A stretch of 64,000 nt of DNA from NCBI GenBank assembly GCA_003220435.1, contig QHSL01000070.1:5511-69510 (forward strand). The letters are read 5' to 3'. The position numbers and the translations under genes are program-made. Positions 10,701 through 58,080 of this stretch are shown here, one piece after another (the first letter of the stretch is position 1; each line of letters starts with the position of its first letter). A model generated the notes under the pieces. The model saw nothing but the letters and a program-made list of their open reading frames with translations, was not told the DNA's origin and ran no database searches. The DNA is from Candidatus Rokuibacteriota bacterium (GTDB lineage: Bacteria; Methylomirabilota; Methylomirabilia; Rokubacteriales; CSP1-6).

Positions 10701-10715
10701 TGGCACCGCATATGC
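10701..10715 (+). promoter_or_regulatory. Candidate sigma-54 (-24/-12) promoter: TGGCAC-N5-ATGC.
   Basis: aaaTGGCACcgcatATGCTcg has a perfect -24 TGGCAC, exact 5-nt spacer and the GC of the -12 element. The predicted start site is ~55 nt upstream of ATG 10781. Confidence 0.3.
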
Positions 10716-10780
10716 TCGTGTCCGATTCAATGCGTCCAGCAAGCACGGAACCTCACGTTCGACGGCTGCTCGAGGGCCAC

Positions 10781-11047
10781 ATGGCTCGGCATCTGTTCCT
10801 CGTCTCGCGCCACGATGCTCGTCTCTATGAGTATCTGGTCGATCGGTTTCGGGACGATAGAAACGTCGAAGTCATCCTCGATCGCCGTCACATCGAGCGC
10901 CGGGGCCGAACGCACCCGCCCGCGTACGTAGGCGGCGATCGCCGGCGCGGCGACCGCCGGACTCGGCGCGAGCTCGACCTGGAGCTCAAGGTCCGGTCTC
11001 ACGTGATCCTGACGATCCCCGACGCCGACACCCCTCCCCATTTATAG
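10781..11047 (+). CDS. Small hypothetical protein (88 aa from ATG 10781; ORF opens at 10649/10700), paralogue of 10392-10613.
   Basis: HLFLVSRHDARLYEYLVDRFRDDRNVEVILDRRHIERRG and RRELDLELKVRSHVILTIP parallel the motif order of the divergent small ORF. A GAGGG sits 4 nt before ATG 10781. TAG at 11045-11047. Confidence 0.4.
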   Translation: MARHLFLVSRHDARLYEYLVDRFRDDRNVEVILDRRHIERRGRTHPPAYVGGDRRRGDRRTRRELDLELKVRSHVILTIPDADTPPHL

Positions 11048-11048
11048 C

Positions 11049-11220
11049 CGCGCCTCGGCCGGCGGGGCCCCAGCCCCGCGACGGCCTGCAGCGCGTACTT
11101 TTCCAGAGTCGCACCTCGGCTGGCGGGGCCCCAGCCCGCGACGGCCTGCAGCGCGTACTTTTCCAGAGTCGCACCTCGGCCGGCGGGGCCCCAGCCCCGC
11201 GACGGCCTGCAGCGCGTACT
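11049..11220. repeat. Tandem direct repeat of ~60 bp: 2 full copies plus 1 truncated copy, each carrying a GC-rich hairpin.
   Basis: Copies at 11049-11109, 11110-11169 and 11170-11220 (cgcacctcggcYggcggggccccagccc(c)gcgacggcctgcagcgcgtacttttccagagt). Each contains the inverted repeat ggccgGCGGGGCcccaGCCCCGCgacggcc. It fills the whole gap between the convergent small ORF (stop 11047) and the TPR-protein gene (stop 11227). Confidence 0.9.
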
Positions 11221-11226
11221 ACGGTC

Positions 11227-14200
11227 CTAGGACGCGCCGAGCTCGCGCAGCACACGGCGCGCCTCGACGGCATCGGTAGATTTCTCGTCCAGCTGGAGCG
11301 AGCGCCTCAGCGACACGATCGCATCCTCTTTCTTCCCGAGCTGGTAGTAGGTCATCCCCAGGTGATGGTGGACCGGCGCGATCCGCGCGCCGAGCTCGGC
11401 CGCCCGCTTGAGGATCGGCTCCGCCTTCGCGTACTCCCCGCGCTGGTAGTACACGAAGCCGACGGTGTCGAGGACCGACGCGGAATTGGGCGCGGCCTCC
11501 TGCGCGCTCAGCGCCAGCGTCAGCGCTTCCGCGAGGTTCTGGGTCCGCGACGCGTAGATCCACGCGAGGTTGTTGAGCACCGCCGCATCCTTTGGATTCA
11601 GGCTCTGCGCCTTCCGATAGGAGGCGATCGCCCGGTCGACCTCGCCCTTCCGCTCGTAGGCGTTCCCGAGCAAGAAGTGGGCGGGCGCGTGACCGGGCTG
11701 CAGGGCGACCACGGTGCTCAGCGCGTCGGTCGCCGGCTGGAGATTGCCGCGCTGGAGCTGGAGCTGGCCGATGATGTAGTGCGCCGCCGCCAGCTTGGGC
11801 TGGCGGGCGACCGCGTCCTTCGCGAGCGCCAGCGCTTCGTCGAACCGTCCGGCCTGCGCTTTCAGGCTGGCCAGCCGTAGCTTCAGGTCCACGTTGGGCG
11901 GGCTCACCCGGTGGGCCGTGTCGAGGTGCTGGATCGCCGCCTCGACGTTGCCCTTGCGCTGGTGGTAATCGCCGAGCAGCAGGTTCGCCTGGAGATTCTC
12001 AGGCTCCGAGCGCACGACCGCCTTGAGGTAGTCGGCCGCCTCCTCCGCCTTCTTGTCGTGAAGACGCAGCAGGCCCATCGCGAGGTTGGCCGGAACGAAC
12101 GTCGGCGCGACCTCGAGGATCCGCCGGTACTCGGCTTCGGCTTCCGCTCGCTGGCTCCGGGCCAGGTACGCCCGCGCCAGCGCGTTGCGGACGGCGACGT
12201 TGCTCCCATCCTTCTCGAGCGCGGTCTTGAGCTCGCCGATCTGCTCGACCAGCAGCGCATCGTCTGGCTTCTGGCCCGACAGCGCCGCCATCTCGATCCG
12301 GATCCCCTTGGTGTCGGGCGCGAGCTCGAGGGCCTTTTGGTACGATCGCCGCGCGCCGTCCAGGTCGCCCCGCGCGAGCAGCGCGCGCGCGCGGTAGTAG
12401 TGGCCCGCCGCGATGTTCGGATTGATCTGGTTCACCTGATCGAACTGCGTGATCGCCTCTGCGGTGTTGTACTTGCCGAGGTAGGCGAGGCCGAGGAGGA
12501 TCCGCGGCTGCACGGAGCCTGGATCGCCGGAGACCACGGGCGAGAGCAAGCTCACCGCGTCGTCGTATCGGGCTCGCTTGATATAGAGGTGGCTCAGCGC
12601 CAGGGTCAGCTCGCGCGCTGGGGGCGTGGCCTTGATCGCCGGCTCGAGGACCGCGATCGCCTGGTCGAACCGGACGTGCGCGGCGTGAACGCTCGCCAGT
12701 GTGAGCGCGGCGGCGACGTCGGCCGGCCGATCAGTCAGGATCCGCTGGAGCTGCGCGACCGCTTCACCCTCGCGCTTCCCGGTTAGCAGCAGCCGGGCCA
12801 GGGCGAAGCGCGCGGGCGCGAACCGCTCGTCGACTGCGATCGCGCGCTTGAGCTCCTCCTCGGCCTTCTTCTGGTCACCCTTCTTGTCGTGGAGCGCGGC
12901 CAGCGTCAGGATCAGCTCGGGGTTCTTCGGGTCGGCCTTCAGCGTGGCCTGCAGCGCGGCAAGCGCCTCGTCGGTCCGGTTCTGCTGGACGAGCGTGGCG
13001 ACCTTCGCCCGCAGCGCGGGCACGTATTTCGGGTTCGCCCGGAGCGCCGTCTCGTATTCCCGGAGCGCATCCTGGGGCTTCTTCTCGCTGTTGTAGACGT
13101 TTCCGAGCGCCAGCCGCCCGGGCGCGAAGCTCGGATCGACCTCGACCGCCCTCGCGTACATGTCCTCGGCGCGCTTGAGGTCGCCGCGGGCGACGTAGAT
13201 CGCCCCGAGCACTCCGTAGGGCTGCGCGCTCTGGGGCATGAGCCCGGTGGCGGTCTGGGCCGACTTCACCGCCCGGTCGAAATCTCCGAGCCGGAGATGC
13301 GCCCGAGCCACTTGCAGATGGTACTCGCCGACCTTCTCCATCGGCCTGGTGATCGCGTCGAACTCGCGAAGCGCCTCGCGCGCGCGACCACCGGCCAGGT
13401 AGGCGCCTCCCAGGCCGTAGCGGAAGAGGGGGTTGTCGGGGGCTCGCGCCACGATCGCCTGAAATTCGACGACCGCATCGTCGACCCGGTTGAGCCCAAC
13501 GAAGGCGTGCGCGAGCAAGTAGCGCACGACCGGCGTGTCCGGCAACGACCGGGCGAGCGGCCGCAGGGCCAGGATCGCCTTCTCGTACTCCTGGGCCCGG
13601 ACGTAGTACCCCCCCAGGACGACCACGACGCGCGGCGACCATGCCTGACGCGGCAGGGTTTCAAGATCCTTGATCGCGTCAAGGAGCCGGCCGTCCACGG
13701 CGTGGAGCTCGCTGGACGCCAGGGCGACTTTCGGGCTCTGCGGAGCCACCACCTTCGCCTGATTCACGACTTCGCGGGCGGCATCGCGCTGGCCCTGACG
13801 CAGCAGCAGCCCGGCGAGCCCGATCAGTGCGTCGGGATATTTCGGCCTCTCGACGAGTGCGTCGCGATAGGCCTTCTCGGCCTCCGCCAGGCGCCCGAGG
13901 ATCGCGAGGGAGTCGCCTAGAGCCCGCTGGACCTCAGGCGTCCCGGGACCGCGCGCGAGAGCCTTCGACAGTAGCGCCGCCGCCTGCTGGGCGTCTCCCT
14001 GGCCGTTGAGCACGGCCCCCCTCACGTAGAGCTCCGCCGCGCTCTCGGGAGCCTTCGCCCGGATCGCGTCGGCCTGCTCCAGCGCCGCGTTCCATCCCTC
14101 GAGGTCGAGGTACGACTGCGCCAGGTCGGCGCGCGCCTCGAGATTGTCGGGCTGCAACTCGACTGCCCGCTGGAACTCCCGCATGGCGTCGACGTTCCAG

Positions 14201-14427
14201 GACTTGGCGCGATACGCGCGGCCCATCGCGTGGAGAGCGGGCGCGAATTTCGGATCGATCTGGAGAGCGTTTTTCAGCTGAAGGATCGCCTCGTTGTACT
14301 TGCCTTCGGTGTGGTACTTGATCCCCCGCTCCAGATATTGCTGCTTCTTCACGTTCGGGTCCTGAGTGCAGGCCCCGAGCATCAGCGCGCACAGCAAGCA
14401 CACCTGGAGACGGCGGCGCGTCCTCAT
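11227..14427 (-). CDS. prsT: PEP-CTERM-system TPR-repeat lipoprotein (PrsT-like), ~1067 aa.
   Basis: Start trimmed to ATG 14427 (MRTRRRLQVCLLCALMLGACTQ: signal peptide plus lipobox LGAC), with a GAGAGGA Shine-Dalgarno 6 nt upstream. The entire protein is tandem TPR repeats (AxxxYxxAxxxxP pattern), as in the TIGR02917-type protein found with exosortase A loci. Confidence 0.88.
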   Translation of the reverse strand: MRTRRRLQVCLLCALMLGACTQDPNVKKQQYLERGIKYHTEGKYNEAILQLKNALQIDPKFAPALHAMGRAYRAKSWNVDAMREFQRAVELQPDNLEARADLAQSYLDLEGWNAALEQADAIRAKAPESAAELYVRGAVLNGQGDAQQAAALLSKALARGPGTPEVQRALGDSLAILGRLAEAEKAYRDALVERPKYPDALIGLAGLLLRQGQRDAAREVVNQAKVVAPQSPKVALASSELHAVDGRLLDAIKDLETLPRQAWSPRVVVVLGGYYVRAQEYEKAILALRPLARSLPDTPVVRYLLAHAFVGLNRVDDAVVEFQAIVARAPDNPLFRYGLGGAYLAGGRAREALREFDAITRPMEKVGEYHLQVARAHLRLGDFDRAVKSAQTATGLMPQSAQPYGVLGAIYVARGDLKRAEDMYARAVEVDPSFAPGRLALGNVYNSEKKPQDALREYETALRANPKYVPALRAKVATLVQQNRTDEALAALQATLKADPKNPELILTLAALHDKKGDQKKAEEELKRAIAVDERFAPARFALARLLLTGKREGEAVAQLQRILTDRPADVAAALTLASVHAAHVRFDQAIAVLEPAIKATPPARELTLALSHLYIKRARYDDAVSLLSPVVSGDPGSVQPRILLGLAYLGKYNTAEAITQFDQVNQINPNIAAGHYYRARALLARGDLDGARRSYQKALELAPDTKGIRIEMAALSGQKPDDALLVEQIGELKTALEKDGSNVAVRNALARAYLARSQRAEAEAEYRRILEVAPTFVPANLAMGLLRLHDKKAEEAADYLKAVVRSEPENLQANLLLGDYHQRKGNVEAAIQHLDTAHRVSPPNVDLKLRLASLKAQAGRFDEALALAKDAVARQPKLAAAHYIIGQLQLQRGNLQPATDALSTVVALQPGHAPAHFLLGNAYERKGEVDRAIASYRKAQSLNPKDAAVLNNLAWIYASRTQNLAEALTLALSAQEAAPNSASVLDTVGFVYYQRGEYAKAEPILKRAAELGARIAPVHHHLGMTYYQLGKKEDAIVSLRRSLQLDEKSTDAVEARRVLRELGAS

Positions 14428-14468
14428 CGACAGTCCTCTCGCGACGTACTGCGGCTTCCACTTCTTGG

Positions 14469-14484
14469 GCAATTGGGATGCCAA
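14469..14484 (-). promoter_or_regulatory. Sigma-54 promoter for prsT: TGGCAT-N5-TTGC.
   Basis: The minus strand reads gcTTGGCATcccaaTTGCcc, with exact -24/-12 spacing. The predicted start site is ~30 nt upstream of the prsT ATG. Three sigma-54 enhancer-binding proteins are encoded in the window. Confidence 0.55.
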
Positions 14485-14756
14485 GCCTAGCACCTTCCTT
14501 CTCGGTTTCCGGTCGGAACTCTTTCTTCAGGTGTTCAACATCTGATCAGCGAGGTGGACAGTGGAGGAGTGATGTCAATTATTTGATTCAGTGCACTTTT
14601 TACCACGTCGGCCCCGGCAGTGACCGAGAACCGTGGCAAAATCCCGGCCATACGCCGACGCCACGCAAATGCTGCCACGCCGCAAAATATGCAAGGGAAC
14701 CGAAGGGTTGGGAAGCGCAGTTCCCTTTGGTACTCGCCTTGCTCGATCCTCAGCTC

Positions 14757-16163
14757 GTGAACCAGAGCTCTCTCGTCTCGCTAGTCGTGGATCCCGAGCC
14801 ATCCTCCGCGCAAACGCTGGCGGAGATGCTCGGCCAGATCGGTTGTCAGGTGCTCAGGACCGCGACCGGGGCCGAGGCGCTCGAGCGGTTTCACTCGGCG
14901 CTGCCCTCGCTGATCTTGCTCGACCTCGACATCGCCGACATTCCGGGCCGCCATCTGCTCCGCCACTTCCGCAGCTATGCGGAGCAGACGCCGATCATCG
15001 CTCTGGCGCGTCGAGTCGACGTCCGGATCGCCGTCGAGGTCGTGCGCGCCGGCGCGACCGAAGTCGTCGAGAAGGGAATCAGCCGGGACAACCTTCGCCT
15101 CGTCCTCAAAAAGGTGCTGCCGGCGGCGATCGCGACTGGACGCCGGGAGGCCCCCGACCGGGCCCGGGTCCTCTTCTTCTCGCGGTACGAGGGGCTCTTC
15201 CGGCGCAGCGAGCGGATGAAAGCCGTGGAGACGCTCGTGGTGCGCGTCGCCGACACCGACGGGCCCGTCCTGATCCAGGGCGAGCCGGGCACCGGCAAGG
15301 AGCTGGTGGCGCAGGCCATCCACCACCTTTCCAGCCGATCGGGCAAGGCCTGGCAGCGAGTGAACTGCGCTTCGCTGCCGGGCGACCTGCTCGAGTCCGA
15401 GATCTTCGGCTACGAGGGTGAGGCGCCAGCGAACATGCCGGTCCGCCAGCCCGGGAAGCTCGACCTCGCCGACGGCGGCACGCTGCTGCTCGACGAGATC
15501 GGGGACCTTCCACCGGTCCTCCAGGCGCGGATCGTCCATCTGCTGCAGGACGGTCAGTTCTTCCGCGCCCGGGGACGCGAGCTGATCAGCACCGGCGTTC
15601 GCCTGCTCGCAACCACCGTCAAGGACCTCAAGGCCATGGCGATGGCCCACGCGTTCAGCGAGGATCTGTCTCGCTTGCTCGGCGTCGTCAACATCGTGGT
15701 CCCGCCCTTGCGGGAGCGACGCGAGGAGATCCCGCTCCTGGCCGACCATTTCCGCGTCCGGTTCGCCGGCGAGTTCAACCGACCGCAGCCGAAGCTCTCG
15801 AGCGAAATTCTGGAATTGCTCTCCGCCTACGACTGGCCGGGCAACGTCCGCGAGCTCGAAAGCCTCGTGAAGCGGTGGATCGTCCTCGGCGACGACTCGC
15901 ACGTGAAGGAAGATCTCCAGTCGCGGTTGCGGGCGAGAGGGGCGAACGGCAAGCCGAGGCCCCCGTCGGCCGACGACGTCGGTCTCCGAGAGGTCGGGCG
16001 CCGAGCGGCCCGAGCGGCCGAGCAGGCGGCGTTGCACGAGGCGCTGGCGCGCGTGGGCGGCAACCGCGCGGCGGCGGCCCGTCTGCTCAAGATCAGCTAC
16101 AAGACGCTGCTGCAGAAGCTGAACGCGGGAAAGCGCGCCAAACGCCTCGGCGGGCACGGGTGA
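14757..16163 (+). CDS. Sigma-54-dependent response regulator (REC + AAA+ sigma-54 activator + Fis-type HTH). Start uncertain: GTG 14757 proposed; the ORF opens at 14478.
   Basis: REC-like N-terminus (SLVVDPE...LILLDLDIADIPG), then GEPGTGKE Walker A, GAFTGA-like ESEIFGYEGEAP loop, R-finger region and C-terminal HTH (GGNRAAAARLLKISYKTL). Divergent from prsT. Confidence 0.75.
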   Translation: MNQSSLVSLVVDPEPSSAQTLAEMLGQIGCQVLRTATGAEALERFHSALPSLILLDLDIADIPGRHLLRHFRSYAEQTPIIALARRVDVRIAVEVVRAGATEVVEKGISRDNLRLVLKKVLPAAIATGRREAPDRARVLFFSRYEGLFRRSERMKAVETLVVRVADTDGPVLIQGEPGTGKELVAQAIHHLSSRSGKAWQRVNCASLPGDLLESEIFGYEGEAPANMPVRQPGKLDLADGGTLLLDEIGDLPPVLQARIVHLLQDGQFFRARGRELISTGVRLLATTVKDLKAMAMAHAFSEDLSRLLGVVNIVVPPLRERREEIPLLADHFRVRFAGEFNRPQPKLSSEILELLSAYDWPGNVRELESLVKRWIVLGDDSHVKEDLQSRLRARGANGKPRPPSADDVGLREVGRRAARAAEQAALHEALARVGGNRAAAARLLKISYKTLLQKLNAGKRAKRLGGHG

Positions 16164-16255
16164 TGGGGGCCCAGCCGGGTCGGGATGTCCGGGCGAACAG
16201 CCTCTTGATTGGAACGCGGCGCCCTGTCAATATCGTAGGGCTGCGGAGGGCAGCT

Positions 16256-17656
16256 GTGCACGTCACCATCGTCGACGAAACCATGACCGTAGGTGAAGCC
16301 GCCCATCGAGTGCTGTTCTCGATGGGCGTGAAGACGACGTTCGCGGGCTCGCTACACGAGCTGCCGCTCGTGCTCGAGGCGAGCGGCGTGCCGGACCTCG
16401 TGATCGTGAATGTGACCAACGACGTGACGGGCTGGGAGGTCGCGGCCCGGACGCAGCGCGCCGGCTATCAGGGCCGGCTGCTCGCGTTCGTCGACGGGCT
16501 CGACGATCCGCGGACGCGCTACCTGACGCAGCTGCCGAGGGTCGAGTGCGTGGTGCGGCCAAGCTCGCACGCCCTGCTCGAGGACATCGTGAGAAAGGCC
16601 GTTCCGGAGCCGGCGCTGACCCCGGCGCGATCGCTGCCTCCGCTGCCCGCGTCCGCCTATCACGGCATCATCGGCCACTCGCCCCAGATGCATGACATCT
16701 TCTCTCGCATCGACAAGGTGGCGTCCGGCGACGTGAACGTTTGCATCCACGGCGAGAGCGGCACCGGCAAGGAGCTGATCGCGCGGGCGATCCACTACGC
16801 GAGCCCCCGTCGCGACCGTCCCCTCATTACGCTCGATTGCACCACGATCCCGGACGGGCTGATGGAGAGCCACCTCTTCGGGCACGTCAAGGGCGCCTTC
16901 ACCGGGGCGACGGAGCATCGCGAAGGTGTCTTCGCGCTGGCCCACACGGGGACGCTGTTCATCGACGAGCTGGGCGAGCTGAGCCCGCGCCTGCAGGCCA
17001 AACTGCTGCGTGTCATCCAAACGCGCGAGTTCTCGAAGGTGGGCGGGTCCAAGTCCCTCCGGACCGACATCCGGCTCATCACGGCGACGAACAAGGACCT
17101 CAAGACGGCCGTTGCGCAGGGCACGTTCCGCGAGGACCTCTACTACCGCGTGGCGGTCTTCATGATCAAGGTTCCAGCGCTGCGCGAGCGGACCGAGGAC
17201 ATCTCGCTTCTTGTCGAGCATTTCCTCCAGCGGTTCGCCACGCTCTACGGGAAGCCGATCACGAAGGTGGCGCCGTCGACGCTCGAGCGCATGACGTTGC
17301 TGCCGTGGCCCGGCAACGTCCGGCAGCTGGAGAATTTCCTGGAGCAGGCCGTCGTCCTCGCCGAGGGCGACACGCTCACCGACCGGGATCTTTTCGCCGG
17401 AGACTTCGCGAGTGCCGCCGTCAGCGCCACGGCCAACCCAGCGCTGTCGGGACAGTTCGAGCCGGGCCTACCCCTCAGCGAGGTGGAGCGGCGCCACATC
17501 CTTCGCACGCTGCAGAAGGTCCACGGCAACCGCACCGAGGCAGCCCGGCTCCTCCAGATCAGCGTGCGCTGTCTGCAGTACAAGCTGAAGGCCTACGGCC
17601 GGGAGGTCAGCGCGGCGCCCGGGTCCAGCCGGAGTCTCGTCCCCAGCACCTCCTAA
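16256..17656 (+). CDS. Second sigma-54 enhancer-binding protein with a degenerate receiver-like N-terminus. GTG 16256 proposed, with GGAGGG 5 nt upstream; an alternative ATG 16163 overlaps the upstream stop.
   Basis: GESGTGKE Walker A, GAFTGA motif (HVKGAFTGA), a sigma-54 interaction domain and a C-terminal HTH (HGNRTEAARLLQISVRCLQ). The N-terminal domain has N in place of the phospho-acceptor Asp (DLVIVNVTNDVTGWE). Confidence 0.8.
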   Translation: MHVTIVDETMTVGEAAHRVLFSMGVKTTFAGSLHELPLVLEASGVPDLVIVNVTNDVTGWEVAARTQRAGYQGRLLAFVDGLDDPRTRYLTQLPRVECVVRPSSHALLEDIVRKAVPEPALTPARSLPPLPASAYHGIIGHSPQMHDIFSRIDKVASGDVNVCIHGESGTGKELIARAIHYASPRRDRPLITLDCTTIPDGLMESHLFGHVKGAFTGATEHREGVFALAHTGTLFIDELGELSPRLQAKLLRVIQTREFSKVGGSKSLRTDIRLITATNKDLKTAVAQGTFREDLYYRVAVFMIKVPALRERTEDISLLVEHFLQRFATLYGKPITKVAPSTLERMTLLPWPGNVRQLENFLEQAVVLAEGDTLTDRDLFAGDFASAAVSATANPALSGQFEPGLPLSEVERRHILRTLQKVHGNRTEAARLLQISVRCLQYKLKAYGREVSAAPGSSRSLVPSTS

Positions 17657-17730
17657 AGAGCCGCGCCTCGGCCGGGGCGCGCACAACAAGCGCGCACCCC
17701 CTGGCCGCCGCCGATGCTAGATTAGCGCGT

Positions 17731-19137
17731 ATGGTGGCGGTGCTCGTCTTGCTGCTGATCGTCGTGGGCCCGGTCGTCGCGTGGGCCCAGACGACCGGCG
17801 CAGGGTCGCCGCCCGCGGGCTCAGACTTCAATCCCCGCACGCCGCCGTCGCCGACGATCCACTCCGCTCCCGAGATCGTGTTCCCGGTGCCGCCGCCCGC
17901 GGCGGCGCGACCCGTCCAGCTCTTCGAGTTCCATCCACTGGCGGGCGTTTCGGAAGAGTACACCGACAATTTCAATCGCACGGTCCGCAACCGCACGGAA
18001 AACTTCCGAACCTCGGTGTCGCCCGGCCTGAGCGTCCAGATGGACGCCGGCACTCTCACGGGGCTGGCGACCTACACGATCTCCGGATTCCACGACAGCT
18101 CGCCGGACGAGCTCGGCTACTTCAACGTCTTCGCCGGCCGCCTGTCCTGGGAGGCGACACCGAGGCTGAAGCTGACGGCGACGGGCGGCATCAATCAGAG
18201 CGACGCGCCCGGCCAGGCGGACCGGCTCGGCCTGCGGATCGAGCGCCGGAAATTCACGAGCGGCAACGGGTCGCTGGGCGCCGACTGGGCCATCGACAAC
18301 GTCACGGTGTCACCGTACTACCGGCTGAGCGTCTTCTCTCAGGAGGACGGCGCCGACACGACCTCGCACACCTTCGGGCTGAGCACGTCGGTGTTGATCT
18401 ACCGGATCCACACCCTCACGCTCGGCTACGAGCACCTGACGAGCGAGACGTCGGCCACCGGCGGGCCCGGCACAGCGTCGGAGACGAACGGCCATCAGTT
18501 CACCGCCGCCTTCTCGCGCGATCTCAGCGAGCGTACCTCGGTCGGGATCACGGGAAGCTACGCGTTCAGGACGCAGGATCAGGAGCGGCCTGACGCCGAG
18601 ACCGATTTCAGGCGCTGGACCGCCGCCGCGTTCGCCAACTACGTGATCCCCGGGACGGTCATGCTGCGGGTCAACGTCGGCGCCAGCCAGCTCACGACCG
18701 ACACGTCGGACTTTCGGCCGGTGGTCTCGACCTCCAGCAGCCTGTCCTACTGGTTCGGGAAGGCCGTGGTCGGCGTTACGTTCGAACGCGGGTACTCCGA
18801 GAGCTTCGGCGAGGGACAGAACCAGGGCGTCGTCTTGACGACCGGGGGGAGCGTCTCGTTGGCCTATCCCTTCACCCCGTCGTTCGGCGGGTCGGTGAAT
18901 ATTGCGTACCGGGAAAACGAGTTCACAGGTATCGGGGGTACCCCTTCCGCGATCACCGCCGGCGGCAGCAGCACGCGGACCGACAAGGTGTTCACCGGGA
19001 CAGTCGGCGTGACTTATCAGATACTTCGATGGCTCGGCGCGTCTCTCGACTACTCATACGCTCTGACCAACTCCTCCGACGTCGACGGCGACATCACCGA
19101 GAATCGCGTCCGGCTCGCGCTGAACATCGCCTTCTAG
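17731..19137 (+). CDS. Outer-membrane beta-barrel protein (of the kind found alongside PEP-CTERM EPS loci).
   Basis: Signal peptide (MVAVLVLLLIVVGPVVAWAQ), alternating amphipathic beta-strand pattern rich in T/S/G/Y, and a C-terminal ...RLALNIAF ending in Phe. Confidence 0.8.
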   Translation: MVAVLVLLLIVVGPVVAWAQTTGAGSPPAGSDFNPRTPPSPTIHSAPEIVFPVPPPAAARPVQLFEFHPLAGVSEEYTDNFNRTVRNRTENFRTSVSPGLSVQMDAGTLTGLATYTISGFHDSSPDELGYFNVFAGRLSWEATPRLKLTATGGINQSDAPGQADRLGLRIERRKFTSGNGSLGADWAIDNVTVSPYYRLSVFSQEDGADTTSHTFGLSTSVLIYRIHTLTLGYEHLTSETSATGGPGTASETNGHQFTAAFSRDLSERTSVGITGSYAFRTQDQERPDAETDFRRWTAAAFANYVIPGTVMLRVNVGASQLTTDTSDFRPVVSTSSSLSYWFGKAVVGVTFERGYSESFGEGQNQGVVLTTGGSVSLAYPFTPSFGGSVNIAYRENEFTGIGGTPSAITAGGSSTRTDKVFTGTVGVTYQILRWLGASLDYSYALTNSSDVDGDITENRVRLALNIAF

Positions 19138-19227: not shown

Positions 19228-19638
19228 ATGACCAGGCCTGCACCCTCCGAAGTGCTTGCAGCACGGCGAGTTATGGCGTTGGCCTGGTTCGTGCGTGTTT
19301 CGCACGCCGCATTGAAGCCCAGTCCTCAGTCCGGTAAGGCGACGGCGATTCGCGATCTCCTGGCGCACGACCCGGTGTGCCTCGAGATCGCGCTCTACCT
19401 CGCGCGCAACAGCGAGGCCGCCGACACCGCCCGGGGCATCGCGGAGTGGTGGATCGGTCGGAACCTCGCCTCCACCCAGGAGGCGCTGCTGAAGCTCCAG
19501 GCATGCGGCGTCGTGCAGGCGTTCGCCGTCCAGGACCACACGTTCGTGTACGCCTACACCAAGAACCCCAACCTGAGGCAGTCGATCGCTCGCCAGTTGC
19601 GCGGCGTTCTGGCGCTCCACCCGTCGAGGGGACTCTAG
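19228..19638 (+). CDS. Small hypothetical protein (136 aa), possibly winged-helix-like; start uncertain.
   Basis: It fills the gap between the beta-barrel gene and the sugar-transferase gene with no competing ORF. The last two-thirds show coding-like high GC at third positions. I recognise no family. Confidence 0.45.
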   Translation: MTRPAPSEVLAARRVMALAWFVRVSHAALKPSPQSGKATAIRDLLAHDPVCLEIALYLARNSEAADTARGIAEWWIGRNLASTQEALLKLQACGVVQAFAVQDHTFVYAYTKNPNLRQSIARQLRGVLALHPSRGL

Positions 19639-24474: not shown

Positions 24475-25512
24475 ATGGCAGATGCGCTCGAGCGGCTGGA
24501 CGCGGCGACGGCGACGACCGCGCCCTGCCCGCGCCCCGATCTGCGCGTCGTCGCCCTCGGCGGTGGCACCGGCCTGCCGGCCGTGCTCCGCGGCCTCCGC
24601 GGGGCGCTGTTCGGGTCGCGTCCGCGGGATCCGGATCGCGACCCCGCCCGGCTGACGGCGATCGCCACCGTCGCCGACGACGGCGGCAGCTCGGGCAAGC
24701 TCCGGGCGATGTACCACCTGCCGTCACCGGGTGACGTCCGGAACTGTCTGCTGGCGCTCGCCGAGGGCGATCCCCTGATGTCGGACATGTTCGACTTCCG
24801 CTTCGACCGCGGCGGCGAGGTGGCGGGCCACAGCCTCGGCAACCTGATCCTCACCGCGCTCACCGAGCTGGAGCAGGATTTCTCGAAGGCCATCGCGCGG
24901 GGCGGCCGCATGCTGGCGACGCGGGGCCGCGTGCTGCCCTCGACCGCCGAGAACGTGGCGCTCCACGCCGAGCTCTGCGACGGCACGGTGATCGAAGGCG
25001 AGTCGCGCCTCGCCGACGCGCGGTGCCCGATTCGTCGCATGAGGCTCGAGCCGGCCCGCGCCGCGGCGCTGCCCGAGGCGCGGGAAGCCCTCGAGACCGC
25101 CGACGTCATCGTGATCGGTCCCGGCAGCCTCTACTCGAGCCTGATCGCGGTGCTGCTCGTCGGCGAGCTCCCCGAGGCGATCGCCCGCTCGCGCGCGCGC
25201 GTCGTGATGGTGATGAACCTCATGACCGAGCCCGGCGAGACCGACGGCCACACCGGCGTCGACCACCTGATCGCGATCCGGCGCCACGCGCCGGCGATCA
25301 CGATCCACGATGTCCTGGTCAACACGGCGCCGATCGCTCCGGAGCCGCTGGCGCGGTACGCGGCGCGGGGCGCCGTGCCCGTCCGGGCGGATGTCGACCT
25401 CCTGAAGGCGCTCGGCCACTCGGTCACCGAGTGCGATCTGCTGGCCGCCGGCGCCGAGGTGCGGCACGATCCCGCAAAGCTGACGCGCGCCATCCTGGCG
25501 CGGGTGGTCTGA
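24475..25512 (+). CDS. YvcK/UPF0052 (CofD-like) family protein.
   Basis: VVALGGGTGLPAVLRGL, TVADDGGSSGKLR, GHSLGNLILTA and IGPGSLYSS match the YvcK/GlmR-type motifs as I recall them. Confidence 0.8.
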   Translation: MADALERLDAATATTAPCPRPDLRVVALGGGTGLPAVLRGLRGALFGSRPRDPDRDPARLTAIATVADDGGSSGKLRAMYHLPSPGDVRNCLLALAEGDPLMSDMFDFRFDRGGEVAGHSLGNLILTALTELEQDFSKAIARGGRMLATRGRVLPSTAENVALHAELCDGTVIEGESRLADARCPIRRMRLEPARAAALPEAREALETADVIVIGPGSLYSSLIAVLLVGELPEAIARSRARVVMVMNLMTEPGETDGHTGVDHLIAIRRHAPAITIHDVLVNTAPIAPEPLARYAARGAVPVRADVDLLKALGHSVTECDLLAAGAEVRHDPAKLTRAILARVV

Positions 25513-42214: not shown

Positions 42215-42554
42215 GCCGTGGGGGTACGAGCTGATCTGGGCTCGAACGGACGGGTACGCCGCGAAGATCCTGCACATCAAGGGCGGCCACAAGCTCTCGC
42301 TCCAGTACCACCGGCAGAAGGAGGAGACCATCTATCTGCAGTCCGGGCGGATGATCCTCGTCATCGAGAACGACCACGGCGAGCTCTGTGACGTGGAGCT
42401 CTCGGTCGGCCAGGCGCACCACGTCGCGGTGGGCCGCAGGCACCGGATGATCGCGATCGAGGACTGCGACGTGTTCGAGGTGTCGACCAACCATCTGGAC
42501 GACGTGGTCCGGCTCGAGGACAGCTACGGCCGGGCGGGGACGGCGGCGCCCTGA
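42183..42554 (+). CDS. Cupin-domain protein, mannose-6-phosphate isomerase type II-like.
   Basis: PWGYELIW...KILHIKGGHKLSLQYHRQKEETIYLQSG resembles the PMI-type cupin of ManC-like proteins. Overlaps the kinase gene by 32 nt, so the real start may be later. Confidence 0.55.
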   Translation: MALQSLQRVDKPWGYELIWARTDGYAAKILHIKGGHKLSLQYHRQKEETIYLQSGRMILVIENDHGELCDVELSVGQAHHVAVGRRHRMIAIEDCDVFEVSTNHLDDVVRLEDSYGRAGTAAP

Positions 42555-43414
42555 TGCACCTGGCGTCGCTCGGGCGGGGGCTCCGGCTGGGCGCGGCCGT
42601 CGCGCTGGCGGCGCTCTATGCGCCGGCGATGGCCGCGCTCGTCCACGTCTGGCGCACCGACACGTACGCCGGCCACGGGATGTTCGTGCCGCTCTTCAGC
42701 GCGGTCATCGCCTGGACGGAGCGTGACCGGCTGGGCCGGGCGGCCGGGCGCGGCCATCCGGCCGGCGCCGCGATCGTCCTGGGCGGCCTCGGTCTGCTGG
42801 CGCTCGGCACCGTGGCGGACAGCGTGCTGCTCCAGGGGGTCTCGGTGGCCGTCGCGATCGCCGGCCTCGTCGCGTGGAGCTTCGGCCTACGCTGCCTGCG
42901 CGCGGCAGCGTTCCCCATCGCGTTCCTGCTGCTGATGTCGCCGCTGCCGCGCACGGTCGTCGCGGCGGTCACGCTCCAGGTCCAGCTCTTCGCGGCCGCC
43001 TTTGCGGTCGGCGTGCTGCGGCTGCTCGACCTGCCCGTTTACCAGAGCGGCGTCACGATCGAGCTGCCCTCGATGACGCTGCAGGTCGCCGAAGCGTGCA
43101 ACGGCCTGCGCTTCCTCGTGGCGCTGCTGGTGCTGACGGCGGCGTTCGCGCAGATCACGCAGCGGACCGTCGCCGACAAGGCGGCGCTGGTGGTCGCGGC
43201 GATCCCGATCGCGGTCCTCGCCAACGCGATGCGCGTGGCCGCCATCGTGCTTGGGGTCCAGTACGTGGGCCCGGAGGCGGCCAGCGGCACGATTCACAAC
43301 TGGATCGGCAAGGGCATGTGGGGGCTCACGCTCGTTCCGCTGGTCGGGCTCGGCTTCCTGCTCGCGCGGCGCTCCTCGCCGAAGGTCGGGCCGCTCGAGG
43401 AGGGTATCGCGTGA
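42554..43414 (+). CDS. xrtA: Exosortase (XrtA/EpsH-type transpeptidase), stand-alone without an EpsI domain.
   Basis: 286-aa polytopic membrane protein with hallmark exosortase motifs: conserved Cys (VAEACNGLRF), Arg (ANAMRVAA) and HNWIGK near the C-terminus. ATG 42554 overlaps the upstream TGA. Confidence 0.85.
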   Translation: MHLASLGRGLRLGAAVALAALYAPAMAALVHVWRTDTYAGHGMFVPLFSAVIAWTERDRLGRAAGRGHPAGAAIVLGGLGLLALGTVADSVLLQGVSVAVAIAGLVAWSFGLRCLRAAAFPIAFLLLMSPLPRTVVAAVTLQVQLFAAAFAVGVLRLLDLPVYQSGVTIELPSMTLQVAEACNGLRFLVALLVLTAAFAQITQRTVADKAALVVAAIPIAVLANAMRVAAIVLGVQYVGPEAASGTIHNWIGKGMWGLTLVPLVGLGFLLARRSSPKVGPLEEGIA

Positions 43415-45489
43415 GCGCGACCCTGCTCGCCTTCGTCCTGGCGGCGGCTACGAGCCTCGGGCTCGCCGGGCTGGCGGTGGCCCGGCGACCGCGCGGCGCG
43501 CTCCGCTGGAGCTTCGCGGGAGGCATGGCGGGGTTCGCGGTCGAGTCGATCGCCGCCCTCGTTCTGGTGACGCAGACCGACGCGCCCGATGAGCGGTTGC
43601 TGTGGCTCAAGGTCACCGAGGTCGCGGGGCTCCTGCTCCTGGCGCCGTGGTCCGTCTTCGTCGCGTCGCTGGCGCGTCCCGACGGCCCGGAGCTCTCGCG
43701 GGGCTTCCGCGCCGGTCTCGGGGCGCTCGCGTGCATCGTGACGGCGAGCGCGGCGGCCGTCGCGTATCTGCCCGCGTTCCAGATCGCGGACGTGGTCGGG
43801 CCGTTCCACGCGGCGCGGCTGGACATCCCGGCGCGGGTGTCGGTGCTCGTGCAGCTGGTGGGCACCGTGGTCCTCCTGGCCGGGCTCGAGGCCGCGCTGC
43901 GCACCTCACGGCGCGACGCGCGCTGGCGCATCAAGTACCTGGTGCTGGGTCTGGGCGGCGTGCTGCTCGCCCGCTTCTACTTCATGAGCCAGGTGGCCCT
44001 CTTCAACGTCGAGATGGCGAGCTTTCTCATCACCGGCGCCGCCATCCTGGTCATCGGCAACGTCGCGATCGCGACCTCGATGACGCGGGACCGGCTCGGC
44101 GTCGCCCTGTCGGTGTCGCGCCAGGTGCTGTACCGCTCGGTCGTCGTCGGCGCGCTCGGCGTGTACCTGTTCGCCGTCGGCGTGCTCGGCTGGCTGCTCA
44201 ATTGGCTGGGCATCGGCGAGGAGCTGTTCTTGGGCTCCGTGATCGTCTTCGTCTCGGCGCTCGGGCTGGCCGCCGTGCTGCTCTCCGAGGCGGTGCGCTG
44301 GCGCGTGAAGCGCTTCGTCGCCCGGAACTTCTACCGGAGCAAGTACGACTACCGGGCGCAGTGGGTCAACTTCACCAAGCGGCTGGGCTCGCTGGTGACG
44401 CTCGACGAGCTGGCGCCGCAGCTCCTGTCCACCGTCGTCGAGACGGTCGGCGCCGCCGCGGGCCTTCTGTATCTGCGAGAGGCCGGCAAGGCGTGCCACC
44501 ACGCGACCGCCGCGGTTGGCGCGCGGCGGCCCGTCGCGACGCTCGCCGACGCCCACCCACTGATCGCGTCGCTCGGGGCGCGCCGGGCGCCGCACGTGCT
44601 CGAGAACGGCTGGGCCGGCGCCCTGCTCGAGTCGCCGACTGCGGCCGCGTTTCCGGAGGGATCGGTGCTGGTCCCGCTGCGCTGGCGCGACGAGCTGGCG
44701 GGCTTCCTCCTGATCGGAGGGGAGCAGACTGGCGTGCCGTACACCAGCGAAGACCTCGAGTTCATGGAGACCGTGGCCGAGCAGGCGGTCGGCGCCATCG
44801 TCACCACGCGGCTCTCCGAGAGCCTGGCCCGATCGCGCGAGTTCGAGGCGATCCATCGACTGACGTCGTTCGTGATCCACGACCTCAAGAACTCGATCTC
44901 GGCGCTCTCGATGCTGAGCGAGAACGCGCTCAAGAACTTCGACGACCCCGAGTTCCAGCGCGACGCGCTCCGGACGGTCGTCAAGACCGTGGACCGCATG
45001 ACGGCGCTCCTCGGGCGCCTCAGCGGGGCGCCGGAGGCGGCCCGGCTTCGCCTCGAGGTCGTCGACCTGGCGGCCCTGGTGCTGGACGCGGCGCGACCGA
45101 CCGTCCGGAGCGACCGGATCGCGCTCGTCAAGGAGCTGGCGCCGCTGCCGATCTCCGCCGATCCCGAGGCCCTCTCGAAGGTGATCCAGAACCTCGTCAC
45201 CAACGCCGTGCAGTCGATCGAGGGCCAGGGCACCGTGACCCTGCGCACCTTCGTCGACGGCGGCTGGGCCGTCTTCGCGATCACCGACACCGGCTGCGGC
45301 ATGTCCGTGGAATTCGTGCGCCGGTCGCTGTGGGCGCCGTTCCACTCCACGAAGAAGGGCGGCTGGGGCATCGGCCTCTACCAGGCCAAGGGCATCGTCG
45401 AGGCTCACGGCGGCACCATCGACGTGGCGAGCCGGGAAGGGGCGGGCACCACGTTCTCGATCAAGCTTCCGATCGGAGAGGGAACATGA
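43411..45489 (+). CDS. prsK: PEP-CTERM-system sensor histidine kinase (PrsK-like).
   Basis: GTG 43411 (GAGGAGGG Shine-Dalgarno) overlaps the xrtA stop. ~8 N-terminal TM helices, a GAF-like middle region, an H-box (IHDLKNSISALS) and HATPase motifs (NLVTNAVQS, DTGCGM, GWGIGL). Confidence 0.85.
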   Translation: MSATLLAFVLAAATSLGLAGLAVARRPRGALRWSFAGGMAGFAVESIAALVLVTQTDAPDERLLWLKVTEVAGLLLLAPWSVFVASLARPDGPELSRGFRAGLGALACIVTASAAAVAYLPAFQIADVVGPFHAARLDIPARVSVLVQLVGTVVLLAGLEAALRTSRRDARWRIKYLVLGLGGVLLARFYFMSQVALFNVEMASFLITGAAILVIGNVAIATSMTRDRLGVALSVSRQVLYRSVVVGALGVYLFAVGVLGWLLNWLGIGEELFLGSVIVFVSALGLAAVLLSEAVRWRVKRFVARNFYRSKYDYRAQWVNFTKRLGSLVTLDELAPQLLSTVVETVGAAAGLLYLREAGKACHHATAAVGARRPVATLADAHPLIASLGARRAPHVLENGWAGALLESPTAAAFPEGSVLVPLRWRDELAGFLLIGGEQTGVPYTSEDLEFMETVAEQAVGAIVTTRLSESLARSREFEAIHRLTSFVIHDLKNSISALSMLSENALKNFDDPEFQRDALRTVVKTVDRMTALLGRLSGAPEAARLRLEVVDLAALVLDAARPTVRSDRIALVKELAPLPISADPEALSKVIQNLVTNAVQSIEGQGTVTLRTFVDGGWAVFAITDTGCGMSVEFVRRSLWAPFHSTKKGGWGIGLYQAKGIVEAHGGTIDVASREGAGTTFSIKLPIGEGT

Positions 45490-46847
45490 ACAAGCCAAAG
45501 TTGCTGGTCGTCGACGACGACGAAGCCATCCGCACGCAGCTGAAGTACGCGCTGCGAGACGATTTCACGCTGCTCTTCGCCGAGGACCGCGGCGAGGCCA
45601 TGACGGCGGTCAAGGGCGAGCGCCCGCCCATCGTCAGCCTGGATCTCGGGCTGCCGCCGCGACCCGAGAGCGCCGAGGAGGGGCTCCACGCGCTGGACGA
45701 GATCATGAAGCTGGCGCCCGACACCAAGGTGGTCGTCCTCACCGGCAACGGCGACCGCGACAACGCGCTCCGCGCGGTCCGGCTCGGCGCGTTCGACTAC
45801 CACCAGAAGCCCATCCAGCTGACGGATCTGAAGGTCGTCCTCCAGCGGGCGGCGTATCTCCAGACGCTCGAGGCCGATGCCGAGCAGCAGCAGCGTGCCA
45901 CCGAGACCACCACCCGCTTCGAGGACATCCTGGGCAATACGCCCGCCATGCGGGAGATCTTCGGGGTGGTGGCCCGGGTCGCGCGGACCGATGTGACGGT
46001 GCTCGTCCAGGGCGAGAGCGGCACCGGCAAGGAGCTCCTCGCGCGCGCGATCCACGCGAACAGCCCGCGGCGCAAGGGGCCGTTCGTGGCGATCAACTGC
46101 GGGGCGATCCCGGAAACCCTGCTGGAGTCCGAGCTGTTTGGCCATGAAAAAGGCGCCTACACCGGCGCTCACATCCAGCGGAAGGGGAAGCTGGAGCTGG
46201 CCGAGGGCGGCGCCCTGTTCCTCGACGAGATCGGCGAGATGAGTGTGCCGCTCCAGGTGAAGCTTCTCCGGTTCCTGCAGGAGCGGGAGATCGAGCGCGT
46301 GGGCGGCCGCGAGGTACTCCGGGTAGACGCGCGCGTCATCGCCGCCACCAACAAGGATCTGAAATCCGAGCTGCAGGCCGGACGCTTCCGCGAGGACCTC
46401 TATTACCGGCTCTCGGTCGTGAATCTGAAATTGCCGCCCCTGCGCGAGCGAGGCGAGGACGTCGTGCTCATCGCCAACGCCTTCCTGAGAAAGAGCTGCA
46501 AACAGCACCGGCGCAAGCTCCGGTTCGCGAGCGCGGCGCTGGAGGCGATCGCCCGCTACGCCTGGCCGGGGAACATCCGCGAGCTCGAGAACGCGGTCGA
46601 GCGGGCCGTCATCATGGCCCGCACCAAGCTCATCGAGGCGCGCGATCTCGGTATCGAGATCGCCGACGGCGTCGATCTCGCGTCGCTCCGGCAGGCCCGT
46701 GACCGGGCCGAGCGCGAAGCGCTCATCGAGGCGCTCGTGAAGACTCGGGGGAACATCAGCCAGGCCGCGAAGCTCCTGGGGGTGAGCCGGCCGACCTTCC
46801 ACGGGCTGATCGCCAAGTGCGAAGTGAACGCGCGAGACTTTCGTTGA
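45486..46847 (+). CDS. prsR: PEP-CTERM-box response regulator transcription factor (PrsR-like): REC + sigma-54 activator + HTH.
   Basis: ATG 45486 (GGAGAGGGAA Shine-Dalgarno). [11 protein letters not shown]...LDLGLPP receiver, then [14 protein letters not shown], and C-terminal [21 protein letters not shown]. Confidence 0.9.
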
Positions 46848-50518: not shown

Positions 50519-51511
50519 TCAGACCCCGAGGAGTCGGAAGAGGGCCCAGGCGCCGGCGGCAACGATCGCCGAGGCCGGGATGGTCAGGATCCACGCCCAG
50601 AGGATGCGGCCCGCCACTCCCCAGCGGACGGCGGAGAAGCGCTGGATGGCGCCGACGCCCATGATCGAGCCGCTGATCGTCTGGGTCGTGCTGACGGGAA
50701 TGCCGCCGATCGCGGTGCCGAGCAGCGTGATGGCGCCGGCGGTCTCGGCGCAGAATCCGCCCACCGGACGCAGCTTGGTGATCCGCATCCCCATCGTCTT
50801 CACGATGCGCCAGCCGCCGGTCATCGTCCCCAGGGCGAGCGCGGCGTGCGCGGCCAGCACGACCCAGAACGGCACGTAGAACTCGGGCCCGAGGTGGCCT
50901 GTGGTGAAGAGCAGCACCGCGATGATCCCCATCGTCTTCTGCGCGTCGTTGGTGCCGTGACCCAGGCTGTACGCGGCCGCCGACAGGAGCTGGCCGCGCC
51001 GGAAGATCTTGTCCACGCGCCCGGGCGTCGCGTGCCGGAAGACGTTGAGGGTCAGGACCATCATCGCGAAGCCGACCACCAGCCCCACCAGCGGCGCCAG
51101 GATCATGAACGCGCCGATCTTGACGAGACCGCCCGCGATGAGCGAGCCGAAGCCCGCCTTGGCCACCGCCGCGCCCGCGAAGCCGCCGATAAGCGCGTGG
51201 GAGGAGCTGGTGGGAATCCCCCACGCCCACGTGATCAGGTCCCAGACGATCGCGCCGATGAGCCCGGCCAGGATCACCCACTGATCGACCACGTTCGTCT
51301 CGACGACCCCCTTGCCGACCGTCTTTGCCACGCCCACGCCGAAGCCGAACGCGGCCACGAAGTTGAAGAAGGCCGCCCACACGACCGCCTGGAGCGGCGT
51401 GAGGACCCGGGTCGAGACCACGGTGGCGATGGAGTTCGCGGCGTCGTGAAAGCCGTTGATGAAGTCGAAGACGAGCGCGATGAAGACGATGAAGACGACG
51501 GTCGTGAGCAA
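50519..51511 (-). CDS. pitA: Inorganic phosphate transporter, PiT family.
   Basis: FDFINGFHDAANSIATVVST and GHGTNDAQKTMGI are the duplicated PiT signature motifs. Confidence 0.9.
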   Translation of the reverse strand: MLTTVVFIVFIALVFDFINGFHDAANSIATVVSTRVLTPLQAVVWAAFFNFVAAFGFGVGVAKTVGKGVVETNVVDQWVILAGLIGAIVWDLITWAWGIPTSSSHALIGGFAGAAVAKAGFGSLIAGGLVKIGAFMILAPLVGLVVGFAMMVLTLNVFRHATPGRVDKIFRRGQLLSAAAYSLGHGTNDAQKTMGIIAVLLFTTGHLGPEFYVPFWVVLAAHAALALGTMTGGWRIVKTMGMRITKLRPVGGFCAETAGAITLLGTAIGGIPVSTTQTISGSIMGVGAIQRFSAVRWGVAGRILWAWILTIPASAIVAAGAWALFRLLGV

Positions 51512-51528
51512 TGCTCAGGCCGGGACGG

Positions 51529-52146: not shown

Positions 52147-52188
52147 GAGGCTCCGGGGTCTCAGTGTAATGGAAACGTAACGATTCCG

Positions 52189-54791: not shown

Positions 54792-54970
54792 GACCGCAGC
54801 AGAACCACTGGCAGGAGCCCTAGAATCCTCGGAAGCTCCATCTCCGGCGGAAACGGATTGTCCGCCGGTGCGATCGAGCCCCCGGCTCGATCGATTCGCG
54901 GATGGGGGAGTATGGGGGGCCATCTCGGGGCCCCCCATGTCATTCAACCGGGCCATGTCGGGGGCCCCCA

Positions 54971-57036: not shown

Positions 57037-57064
57037 CGTTGCCCTCCTTCGGCCGAGGCGGAGC

Positions 57065-57367: not shown

Positions 57368-57390
57368 CGTCGAGCCTCCTGACGCACGGG

Positions 57391-58066
<676 letters not shown>

Positions 58067-58080
<14 letters not shown>

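Follow-up and report, generated by a model that had tools for sequence, protein, structure and literature searches.

What is the role of two enhancer-binding proteins (EBPs) encoded side by side, when each of them seems to lack what the other has kept? The question is raised by a 64,000-nucleotide stretch of DNA from a Candidatus Rokuibacteriota bacterium (contig QHSL01000070.1; the whole stretch is called the window below), which holds a XrtA/PEP-CTERM exopolysaccharide (EPS) locus of a Rokubacteria/Methylomirabilota-type genome with a G+C content of ~0.69. The host is an uncultured soil bacterium of a phylum known mostly from metagenome-assembled genomes (MAGs), and both proteins have their close homologues in metagenomes and MAGs of Candidatus Rokubacteria/Methylomirabilota. 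The two genes, EBP1 and EBP2, are tandem NtrC-family open reading frames (ORFs) on the plus strand, divergent from prsT, an arrangement reported by a first-pass annotation of the sequence and borne out by the domain matches and by the score of prsT (Table 1). On balance, and judging from motifs and their conservation, we lean towards EBP2 being a phosphorylation-independent, working sigma-54 activator of the locus, with EBP1 as an accessory protein blind to sigma-54.

EBP2: a predicted pseudo-receiver followed by intact activator motifs

EBP2 matches Sigma54_activat (PF00158, E = 1.2e-66), AAA_lid_14 and HTH_8, the latter a Fis-type helix-turn-helix (HTH), and all the AAA+ motifs are found: Walker A, Walker B, an intact GAFTGA loop, sensor I, the arginine fingers and sensor II (GNVRQLE). 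The ratio of nonsynonymous to synonymous substitution rates (dN/dS) is 0.06–0.07 in the AAA+ domain and 0.02–0.05 in the HTH, which means strong constraint. EBP2 therefore has the motifs of a sigma-54 activator and is predicted to be one.

The N-terminus is a different matter, as it gave no Pfam receiver match and no FleQ-domain match at E <= 0.1. Taken alone against PDB sequences, this domain returned one marginal receiver match (E = 0.25), so that a comparison of folds was needed. The AlphaFold2 model, computed from a 20-sequence alignment, is a (beta-alpha)5 fold with a pLDDT (the per-residue confidence score) of 87.3, in which Asn52 closes beta-3 and Arg101 follows beta-5, and the top solved-structure matches of this model in Foldseek are almost all receiver domains. 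A phosphorylatable receiver would have the acceptor aspartate at the end of beta-3 and a lysine at the end of beta-5; EBP2 has Asn52 (within DLVIVNVTND) and Arg101, followed by Pro102, in these places. Of the orthologues (n = 92, 63–92% identity), 89 carry Asn in the acceptor column and 89 carry Arg in place of the receiver Lys, with Pro as the next residue in all 92, and the acceptor Asn is present also in the distant EBP2-type relatives of loci L012, L019, L021, L017 and L011. The Asp-to-Asn change, which the first-pass annotation had pointed out and read as a pseudo-receiver, is thus not a chance substitution. We looked for a conserved Asp that might have been overlooked and found none hidden in EBP2, and with the Asn conserved at the level of the phylum and a receiver-like predicted fold the pseudo-receiver reading is stronger than originally proposed. 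The sequence and the model together indicate a receiver fold predicted not to be phosphorylatable at its canonical site.

A profile search with the N-domain found 32 clusters at E <= 1e-10 among 1.84 billion representatives, mostly fragments, a number that underestimates the family since full-length EBP2s are probably hidden behind other EBP representatives at 50% clustering. Named relatives in this family are labelled Rokubacteria/Methylomirabilota, bar one MAG labelled Binatia. The weak tail of the search includes long proteins of several domains in which the match covers just one stretch of domain length, a pattern expected of receiver domains.

Two starts had been considered for EBP2, one giving a stop/start overlap with EBP1 and the other a gap of about 90 nt. 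Only the latter stands: GTG 16256, preceded by GGAGG, is conserved across 13 loci (as GTG or ATG) and leaves a 92-nt spacer after EBP1. The overlapping start, ATG 16163, was rejected, as the stretch before GTG 16256 is not conserved as coding sequence.

EBP1: a retained receiver and a degenerate AAA+ domain

EBP1 matches REC (PF00072, 60.6 bits), Sigma54_activat, AAA_lid_14 (PF25601) and HTH_8 (PF02954). Its receiver contains Asp56, which lies in LILLDLD as first annotated and aligns with the phospho-acceptor of NtrC1, and Lys106; the switch Thr is replaced by Ala84 and the acidic pair reads D-P-E.

The AAA+ domain has fared worse. In an ungapped alignment to NtrC1 the L1 loop of EBP1 reads EAPANM instead of GAFTGA, so the description of the pair as two complete activators has to be given up. 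The loop is variable or deleted in every EBP1 orthologue with at least 56% identity: 13 residues are missing at L1 in locus L001, and both the L1 and the pre-sensor-I insertions are missing in L011. Relatives about 50% identical (P0137–P0146) retain GAFTGA. Across the EBP1 clade the sensor-I Asn is lost (ATTV, ATTT or ASSA versus ATN) and the second arginine finger is displaced by one residue (DLSRLL or DLYRLL versus DLYYRL); the first finger is Ser in the window protein, and this segment is deleted in P0126 and P0127. Walker B is altered in a few orthologues, the window EBP1 having GEPGTGKE and LLLDEI. The Walker A Gly and Lys are invariant in the clade, and conservation is good also in the lid, at Asp56 and Lys106 and in the HTH. 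Of the equipment of a sigma-54 activator, EBP1 thus has Walker A and B, the lid and the HTH, and is without the GAFTGA loop, the sensor-I Asn and the arginine-finger register. With these three lost it should not be able to remodel sigma-54 polymerase, and since contact with sigma-54 through L1 appears to be precluded, we consider it sigma-54-blind.

At dS of ~0.8–0.9 the dN/dS of EBP1 is 0.26–0.33. In the AAA+ domain it is 0.21–0.31, so that EBP1 is three- to four-fold less constrained there than EBP2, and EBP1 is still a constrained protein. In a neighbour-joining tree all GAFTGA-less EBP1s fall into one clade (42–87% identity), sister to P0137–P0146, which suggests one loss of GAFTGA, then long persistence and later deletions. 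Since the grouping might reflect long-branch attraction, the single loss is tentative.

One further protein of this kind is P0136 (L016:1828-3219, 463 aa), where an EBP1-type receiver and GAFTGA-less AAA+ domain are joined to a C-terminal HTH of the EBP2 type (LSEVERRHILRTLHKARGNRTEAARLLQISIRCLQYKLKAYG). Either the tandem paralogues have recombined or the protein is an assembly chimera (the contig is 3.4 kb long).

EBP2 is the constant and EBP1 the dispensable member of the locus

A scan of species-representative genomes for the EBP2 N-domain yielded 11 loci, ten labelled Rokubacteria/Methylomirabilota or "uncultured bacterium" and one from a MAG labelled Binatia. EBP2 is found in all of them (11/11), always beside EPS genes or prsK-prsR. 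EBP1 is adjacent to it in L001 and L011, absent or a relic in eight loci (L002, L004–L010) and undeterminable in L003; on the metagenome contig L014, which shares the synteny of the window, EBP1 is adjacent to EBP2. The small conserved ORF that lies on the far side of prsT in the window (orf132) is followed directly by EBP2 in L005–L010, and L004 and L002 are likewise without an intact EBP1. Here the leaders tell what has happened. The first five EBP1 codons (VDQTA) remain after the promoter in EBP1-less loci, a remnant of the EBP1 HTH is found in frame in L006 (E = 9e-9) and more weakly in L010, and L002 has an HTH relic (...LERVGGNRAAA...) between prsT and EBP2, beside an inserted 860-aa gene. 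With relics sitting between promoter and EBP2, EBP1 must be ancestral here and eroded by internal deletion. In L006 and L010 the VDQTA codons and the HTH remnant are joined as one short ORF, so the relics may be mini-proteins or mere debris. EBP2 is therefore the constant member of the locus and EBP1 the dispensable one.

In two MAGs EBP2 paralogues are found in separate loci (L002 and L006 in AR27; L008 and L011 in AR28), one beside the small ORF and prsK-prsR and the other beside prsT and EPS export genes; the window joins both contexts.

Five deeper loci (L012, L013, L017/L018, L019, L021) contain EBP1 homologues at 43–53% identity. In all five the EBP1-type gene is GAFTGA-positive and is accompanied by a divergent gene for a single-domain receiver and by a small, degenerate GGDEF gene (the motif reads GGACF in L012). 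An EBP2-type gene and polysaccharide export genes come next in the four that are long enough, L017/L018 ending within a fragment of the EBP2-type gene. Translated, the deep EBP2-type genes have Asn at the acceptor site and GAFTSA or GSFTGA as the loop. Two more GAFTGA-less EBP1 homologues (P0227 in L020, and P0158) lie beside prsT-like genes, and each is followed immediately by an EBP2-type gene, a GGDEF gene being absent. In this sample, the GGDEF gene accompanies a GAFTGA-positive EBP1 in 5/5 loci and a GAFTGA-less one in 0/6. Since an intact EBP1 and an Asn-type EBP2 occur together, with a degenerate GGDEF gene, in the deeper relatives, the pairing looks ancient.

Promoter-like elements around the pair

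A -24/-12 sigma-54 promoter-like site, TGGTACTCGCCTTGCT, precedes EBP1 and is the sole match to TGGYAY-N5-TTGCW in the 64 kb, with 0 expected by chance. Nine loci share the form TGGTAY-N5-TTGCT together with blocks in the ~200 nt upstream, irrespective of whether EBP1 itself or just a relic of it comes next. Similar sites lie upstream of prsT (TGGCATCCCAATTGCC, with the counterpart TGGCATTCCACTTGCG upstream of prsT in L014) and upstream of the small ORF (TGGCACCGCATATGCT), whose orthologues are preceded by TGGCAY-N5-ATGCT in seven loci (L001, L005–L010). In the deep relatives a conserved -24/-12 site is found between EBP1 and the GGDEF-EBP2 operon, before the GGDEF gene.

The spacer between EBP1 and EBP2 contains a sigma-70-like element, conserved as TTGMTT...CCCTGTCAGAAT (TTGMTT-N17(TGT)-CAGAAT) in 9 of 13 loci, and by its resemblance to the consensus alone this is a possible extended -10 promoter. 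We also searched for a shared enhancer motif. There are 13 copies of TGATCAG versus 5.7 expected, but mostly inside genes, and the inverted repeats in 14400–14800 are short and not conserved, so no binding site is claimed. A separate motif, TTTCCGGAAYGGC, with the palindrome TTCCGGA, recurs in the leaders of L005–L009 between the sigma-54-type promoter and EBP2 (L006:~3800; L007:~9800) and may be an operator candidate; its counterpart in the window is weak (ATGTCCGGGCGAAC, ~16180–16195).

A model for the pair and its alternatives

How could such a pair work? Asn52 and Arg101 would bar canonical phosphorylation of EBP2, and therefore its activity would be set by protein amount, by a ligand or by a partner. 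A basal level of EBP2 would probably be made from the sigma-70-like element just upstream of it and boosted from the conserved -24/-12 promoter ahead of the EBP1-EBP2 operon, a promoter for which EBP2 itself or PrsR would be the activator. EBP1, which would descend from a once-complete partner activator, is probably a phospho-responsive, DNA-binding accessory acting without contact to sigma-54, as the analogy with other GAFTGA-less regulators suggests; most likely it would be an optional tuner, either a repressor, an anti-activator or a sigma-70-type regulator. In the deeper, intact arrangement phosphorylated EBP1 (EBP1~P) may have driven the expression of GGDEF-EBP2, forming a cascade. What the analysis shows are the states of the motifs, a predicted fold, sequence conservation, gene order and the conservation of promoter motifs; which activator would fire which promoter, how EBP1 would act on DNA and which kinase would feed it is inference.

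Several observations weigh against this model. The EBP1 receiver is atypical (Ala84, D-P-E), so its phosphorylation is not certain. EBP1-type and EBP2-type genes have stayed adjacent in six distant loci, which argues for a coupling tighter than that of an optional tuner. A standard sigma-70 and terminator scan of 14300–17900 did not call the spacer element; it returned one weak promoter-like match at 14555 and one weak terminator-like match inside EBP2. With TGGTACTCGCCTTGCT only 14 nt (counted from its GC) before the GTG, the mRNA of EBP1 would have almost no leader ahead of its GTG start, an unusual arrangement. Finally, rpoN was not seen in the window.

The same adjacency could be explained by a mixed ring, in which the receiver Asp of EBP1 provides the phospho-input and EBP2 provides the sigma-54 loops and ATP hydrolysis within one hetero-oligomeric AAA+ assembly. 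Such a split of functions would suit the complementary defects of the two proteins, the common operon under one conserved promoter, the tandem kept in those six loci and the purifying selection on the Walker A and lid/oligomerisation region of EBP1, and hetero-oligomeric EBPs have precedents in HrpR/HrpS (PMC3105312) and FleQ/FleT (PMC7277832). We nevertheless hold it to be rather unlikely: EBP2 alone, with its motifs and promoter unchanged, occurs in 8/11 loci, so EBP1 is not needed; the recognition helices differ (ISYKTLLQKL versus ISVRCLQYKL) and a shared enhancer is not expected; the displaced arginine finger of EBP1 would cripple the ATP site of the neighbouring subunit that it contacts; and HrpRS strictly require both GAFTGA loops (PMC3105312). 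The corresponding evolutionary scenario, reciprocal loss after a tandem duplication leaving a split activator wherever both genes are retained, with EBP1~P gating the assembly or the ATPase of EBP2, seems unlikely to us. If true, it would be a natural partition of the input and output modules of an EBP between subunits, and genomes without EBP1 would have EBP2 released from control.

At the other extreme, EBP1 could be a decaying paralogue with no role left, heading for deletion, and the pair would then have no regulatory significance. The three- to four-fold relaxed constraint on its AAA+ domain, the several catalytic features gone, the lineage-specific indels and the repeated losses with relics left behind are what one would expect of decay. 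However, its dN/dS is far under neutrality at the dS given above, intact ORFs persist in a clade that spans 42–87% identity, Asp56 and the Walker A Gly and Lys show little or no variation, and conservation of the HTH is good, and we regard simple decay as improbable. The first-pass annotation had cast EBP1 as the phosphorylated sigma-54 activator and EBP2 as its phosphorylation-independent partner or modulator. The receiver Asp is indeed in EBP1 and not in EBP2, and the -24/-12 site between EBP1 and GGDEF-EBP2 in the deep relatives that keep GAFTGA fits EBP1 activating EBP2 there. But across the clade of the window EBP1 has neither GAFTGA nor the arginine-finger register and would not be able to activate sigma-54 polymerase, while EBP2 is a conserved, fully equipped protein, so we give this reading very little credence for the window. 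With EBP2 complete in its motifs and present in all related loci, the roles are probably inverted, which brings us back to EBP2 as the likely activator and EBP1 as the accessory.

Gene map of the window

The features are collected in Table 1. The canonical two-component pair of the locus, prsK-prsR, lies far downstream, and its PrsR is an additional gene, as had been annotated. A second histidine kinase was sought within the window and PrsK was the sole one found, which agrees with the earlier remark that no kinase is adjacent to the pair. Either EBP as a second PrsR was considered and rejected: with 274.6 bits for EBP1 and 307.7 bits for EBP2, both fall far short of the TIGR02915 cut-off of 502.6.

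Further EPS genes encode a TIGR03016-like outer-membrane protein, a TIGR03013 priming glycosyltransferase, a chain-length determinant/tyrosine kinase, a TIGR03027 export protein and many glycosyltransferases; among them, just after the export protein, is a YvcK/CofD-related gene (UDP-GlcNAc-binding protein family, 321 bits; 24475–25512). The exosortase, at 166.4 bits, is under the XrtA cut-off of 208 and passed only the general TIGR02602 model; its best subtype scores are to the N-terminal part of the XrtW and XrtD models. Two small ORFs, orf132 (88 aa) and one at 19228–19638 (136 aa), are without a Pfam or NCBIfam family and syntenic with EBP2 across Rokubacterial loci, the first upstream and the second downstream; in seven related loci the former is directly upstream of EBP2 or EBP1.

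A urea-transporter/urease cluster that includes an ANTAR response regulator occupies the right-hand end of the window. A good -24/-12 site, TGGCACTTCGCTTGCG (63787–63802, minus strand), lies upstream of the regulator gene (63186–63767), and the minus-strand genes beyond it (span 50519–63767) encode a Peripla_BP_5 periplasmic-binding protein, two branched-chain-type ABC permeases, one of them with HEAT repeats, and the urease alpha subunit. These genes appear to form a unit under nitrogen regulation, unconnected with the EPS locus.

Table 1. Positions of the features discussed, in window coordinates unless a locus is named; promoter-like elements are predictions.
Feature	Position	Strand	Remark
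Regulatory region holding the promoter-like elements (context span)	10701..16233		
-24/-12 sigma-54 promoter-like site TGGCACCGCATATGCT	10701..10716	+	upstream of small ORF orf132
Small conserved ORF (orf132), 88 aa, MARHLFLV...	10781..11047	+	no Pfam family
prsT, XrtA/PEP-CTERM tetratricopeptide-repeat lipoprotein, as ORF	11227-14493	-	TIGR02917 469.8 bits, cut-off 312.2
prsT from its likely start, ATG 14427	11227..14427	-	gives signal sequence MRTRRRLQVCLLCALMLGAC; start and lipobox read from the sequence
-24/-12 promoter-like site TGGCATCCCAATTGCC	14468..14483	-	upstream of prsT; counterpart TGGCATTCCACTTGCG in L014
-24/-12 sigma-54 promoter-like site TGGTACTCGCCTTGCT	14728..14743	+	14 nt before the EBP1 GTG
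EBP1	14757..16163	+	receiver (Asp56), degenerate AAA+, Fis-type HTH
EBP1 LILLDLD, phospho-acceptor Asp56	14910..14930	+	aligned to the NtrC1 acceptor Asp
EBP1 L1 loop EAPANM in place of GAFTGA	15420..15437	+	ungapped alignment to NtrC1
EBP1 sensor I (ATTV for ATN) and arginine-finger segment (FSEDLSRLL for FREDLYYRL)	15609..15680	+	
Sigma-70-like element in the EBP1-EBP2 spacer	16205..16233	+	TTGATT, 17 nt ending TGT, CAATAT
EBP2	16256..17656	+	predicted aspartate-less pseudo-receiver, intact sigma-54 AAA+, Fis-type HTH
EBP2 LVIVNV, Asn52 ending beta-3	16397..16414	+	phospho-acceptor position
EBP2 VVRPSS, Arg101-Pro102	16550..16567	+	receiver Lys-Pro site
EBP2 intact GAFTGA loop	16892..16909	+	
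Exosortase	42554-43414		
prsK-prsR, canonical two-component pair	43430..46847	+	both over cut-offs
prsK	~43430-45489	+	TIGR02916 405.5 bits
prsR	45498-46847	+	TIGR02915 588.8 bits, cut-off 502.6
EBP1 relics	L006:3539-4074; L010:2168-2583; L002:6653-7024		
GGDEF-domain gene between EBP1 and EBP2	L012:9704-10165; L019:8677-9174; L021:3404-3925; L017:9758-10255		

Comparison with known regulators and significance

EBP2 resembles the FleQ/FlrA-type and other EBPs with an aspartate-less receiver, which likewise have a receiver fold without the Asp ahead of an intact sigma-54 AAA+ domain and Fis-type HTH, and FleQ also controls exopolysaccharide genes. The likeness to FleQ is architectural only, as neither the FleQ domain nor a Pfam receiver is matched in sequence; in contrast to FleQ, EBP2 has a specifically conserved Asn/Arg-Pro active-site face and belongs to a narrow N-domain family. 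EBP1 in turn resembles NtrC of Rhodobacter capsulatus and Caulobacter, NtrX, and VpsR of Vibrio cholerae, which combine the receiver Asp, an AAA+ domain without the L1 contact loop and an HTH; VpsR, by its name a Vibrio polysaccharide regulator, is among the PDB sequence matches of EBP1 (7v2b, E = 7.8e-41). GAFTGA-less EBPs of this group regulate sigma-70 promoters (10.1101/2023.06.06.543975). None of them is orthologous to EBP1, whose best NCBIfam matches are all under the cut-off and which differs in having lost also the sensor-I Asn and the arginine-finger register, in sharing an operon and a sigma-54-type promoter with an intact EBP and in being often deleted in relatives.

The pair as such recalls HrpR and HrpS, which are not known to have N-terminal regulatory domains; here, in contrast, both EBPs carry N-terminal domains and EBP1 is without the loop. 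HrpR and HrpS of Pseudomonas syringae are tandem paralogues acting as hetero-oligomers in which both L1 loops are required, and "partial paralogue degeneration" was proposed as the origin of their co-dependence (PMC3105312). FleQ and FleT of Rhodobacter sphaeroides also act as a hetero-oligomer (PMC7277832). A strict co-dependence of this kind is unsupported for EBP1 and EBP2, as EBP2 is found without EBP1 in 8/11 loci. The description of PrsK, PrsR and PrsT (Haft et al. 2006, PMC1569441) contains no extra EBP pair, and states that more regulatory proteins are still to be found. The window shares with that system the PEP-CTERM/EPS setting, sigma-54-dependent control, the adjacent prsT and prsK-prsR in the locus; unlike PrsR, EBP1 and EBP2 are both under the TIGR02915 cut-off, and the true PrsR is a third gene. 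Each half of the pair therefore has known analogues, and what is new is their combination, the reciprocal defects, the PEP-CTERM setting and the series from intact gene to relic.

A practical consequence is that the label "sigma-54-dependent response regulator" is wrong for both proteins, and differently for each. PEP-CTERM/exosortase EPS loci occur widely among bacteria of soils and sediments, and their known regulation is limited to PrsK/PrsR/PrsT, to which Rokubacteria/Methylomirabilota-type genomes add a conserved, kinase-independent predicted sigma-54 activator, EBP2. The graded degeneration of EBP1, from intact partner to sigma-54-blind regulator, relic and complete loss, allows us to ask how AAA+ activators lose or repartition their functions, whether GAFTGA-less subunits modulate intact ones and what replaces phosphorylation where a receiver is without its aspartate. 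The reciprocal degeneration is neat and testable, and would be paradigm-shifting only if the mixed ring were real.

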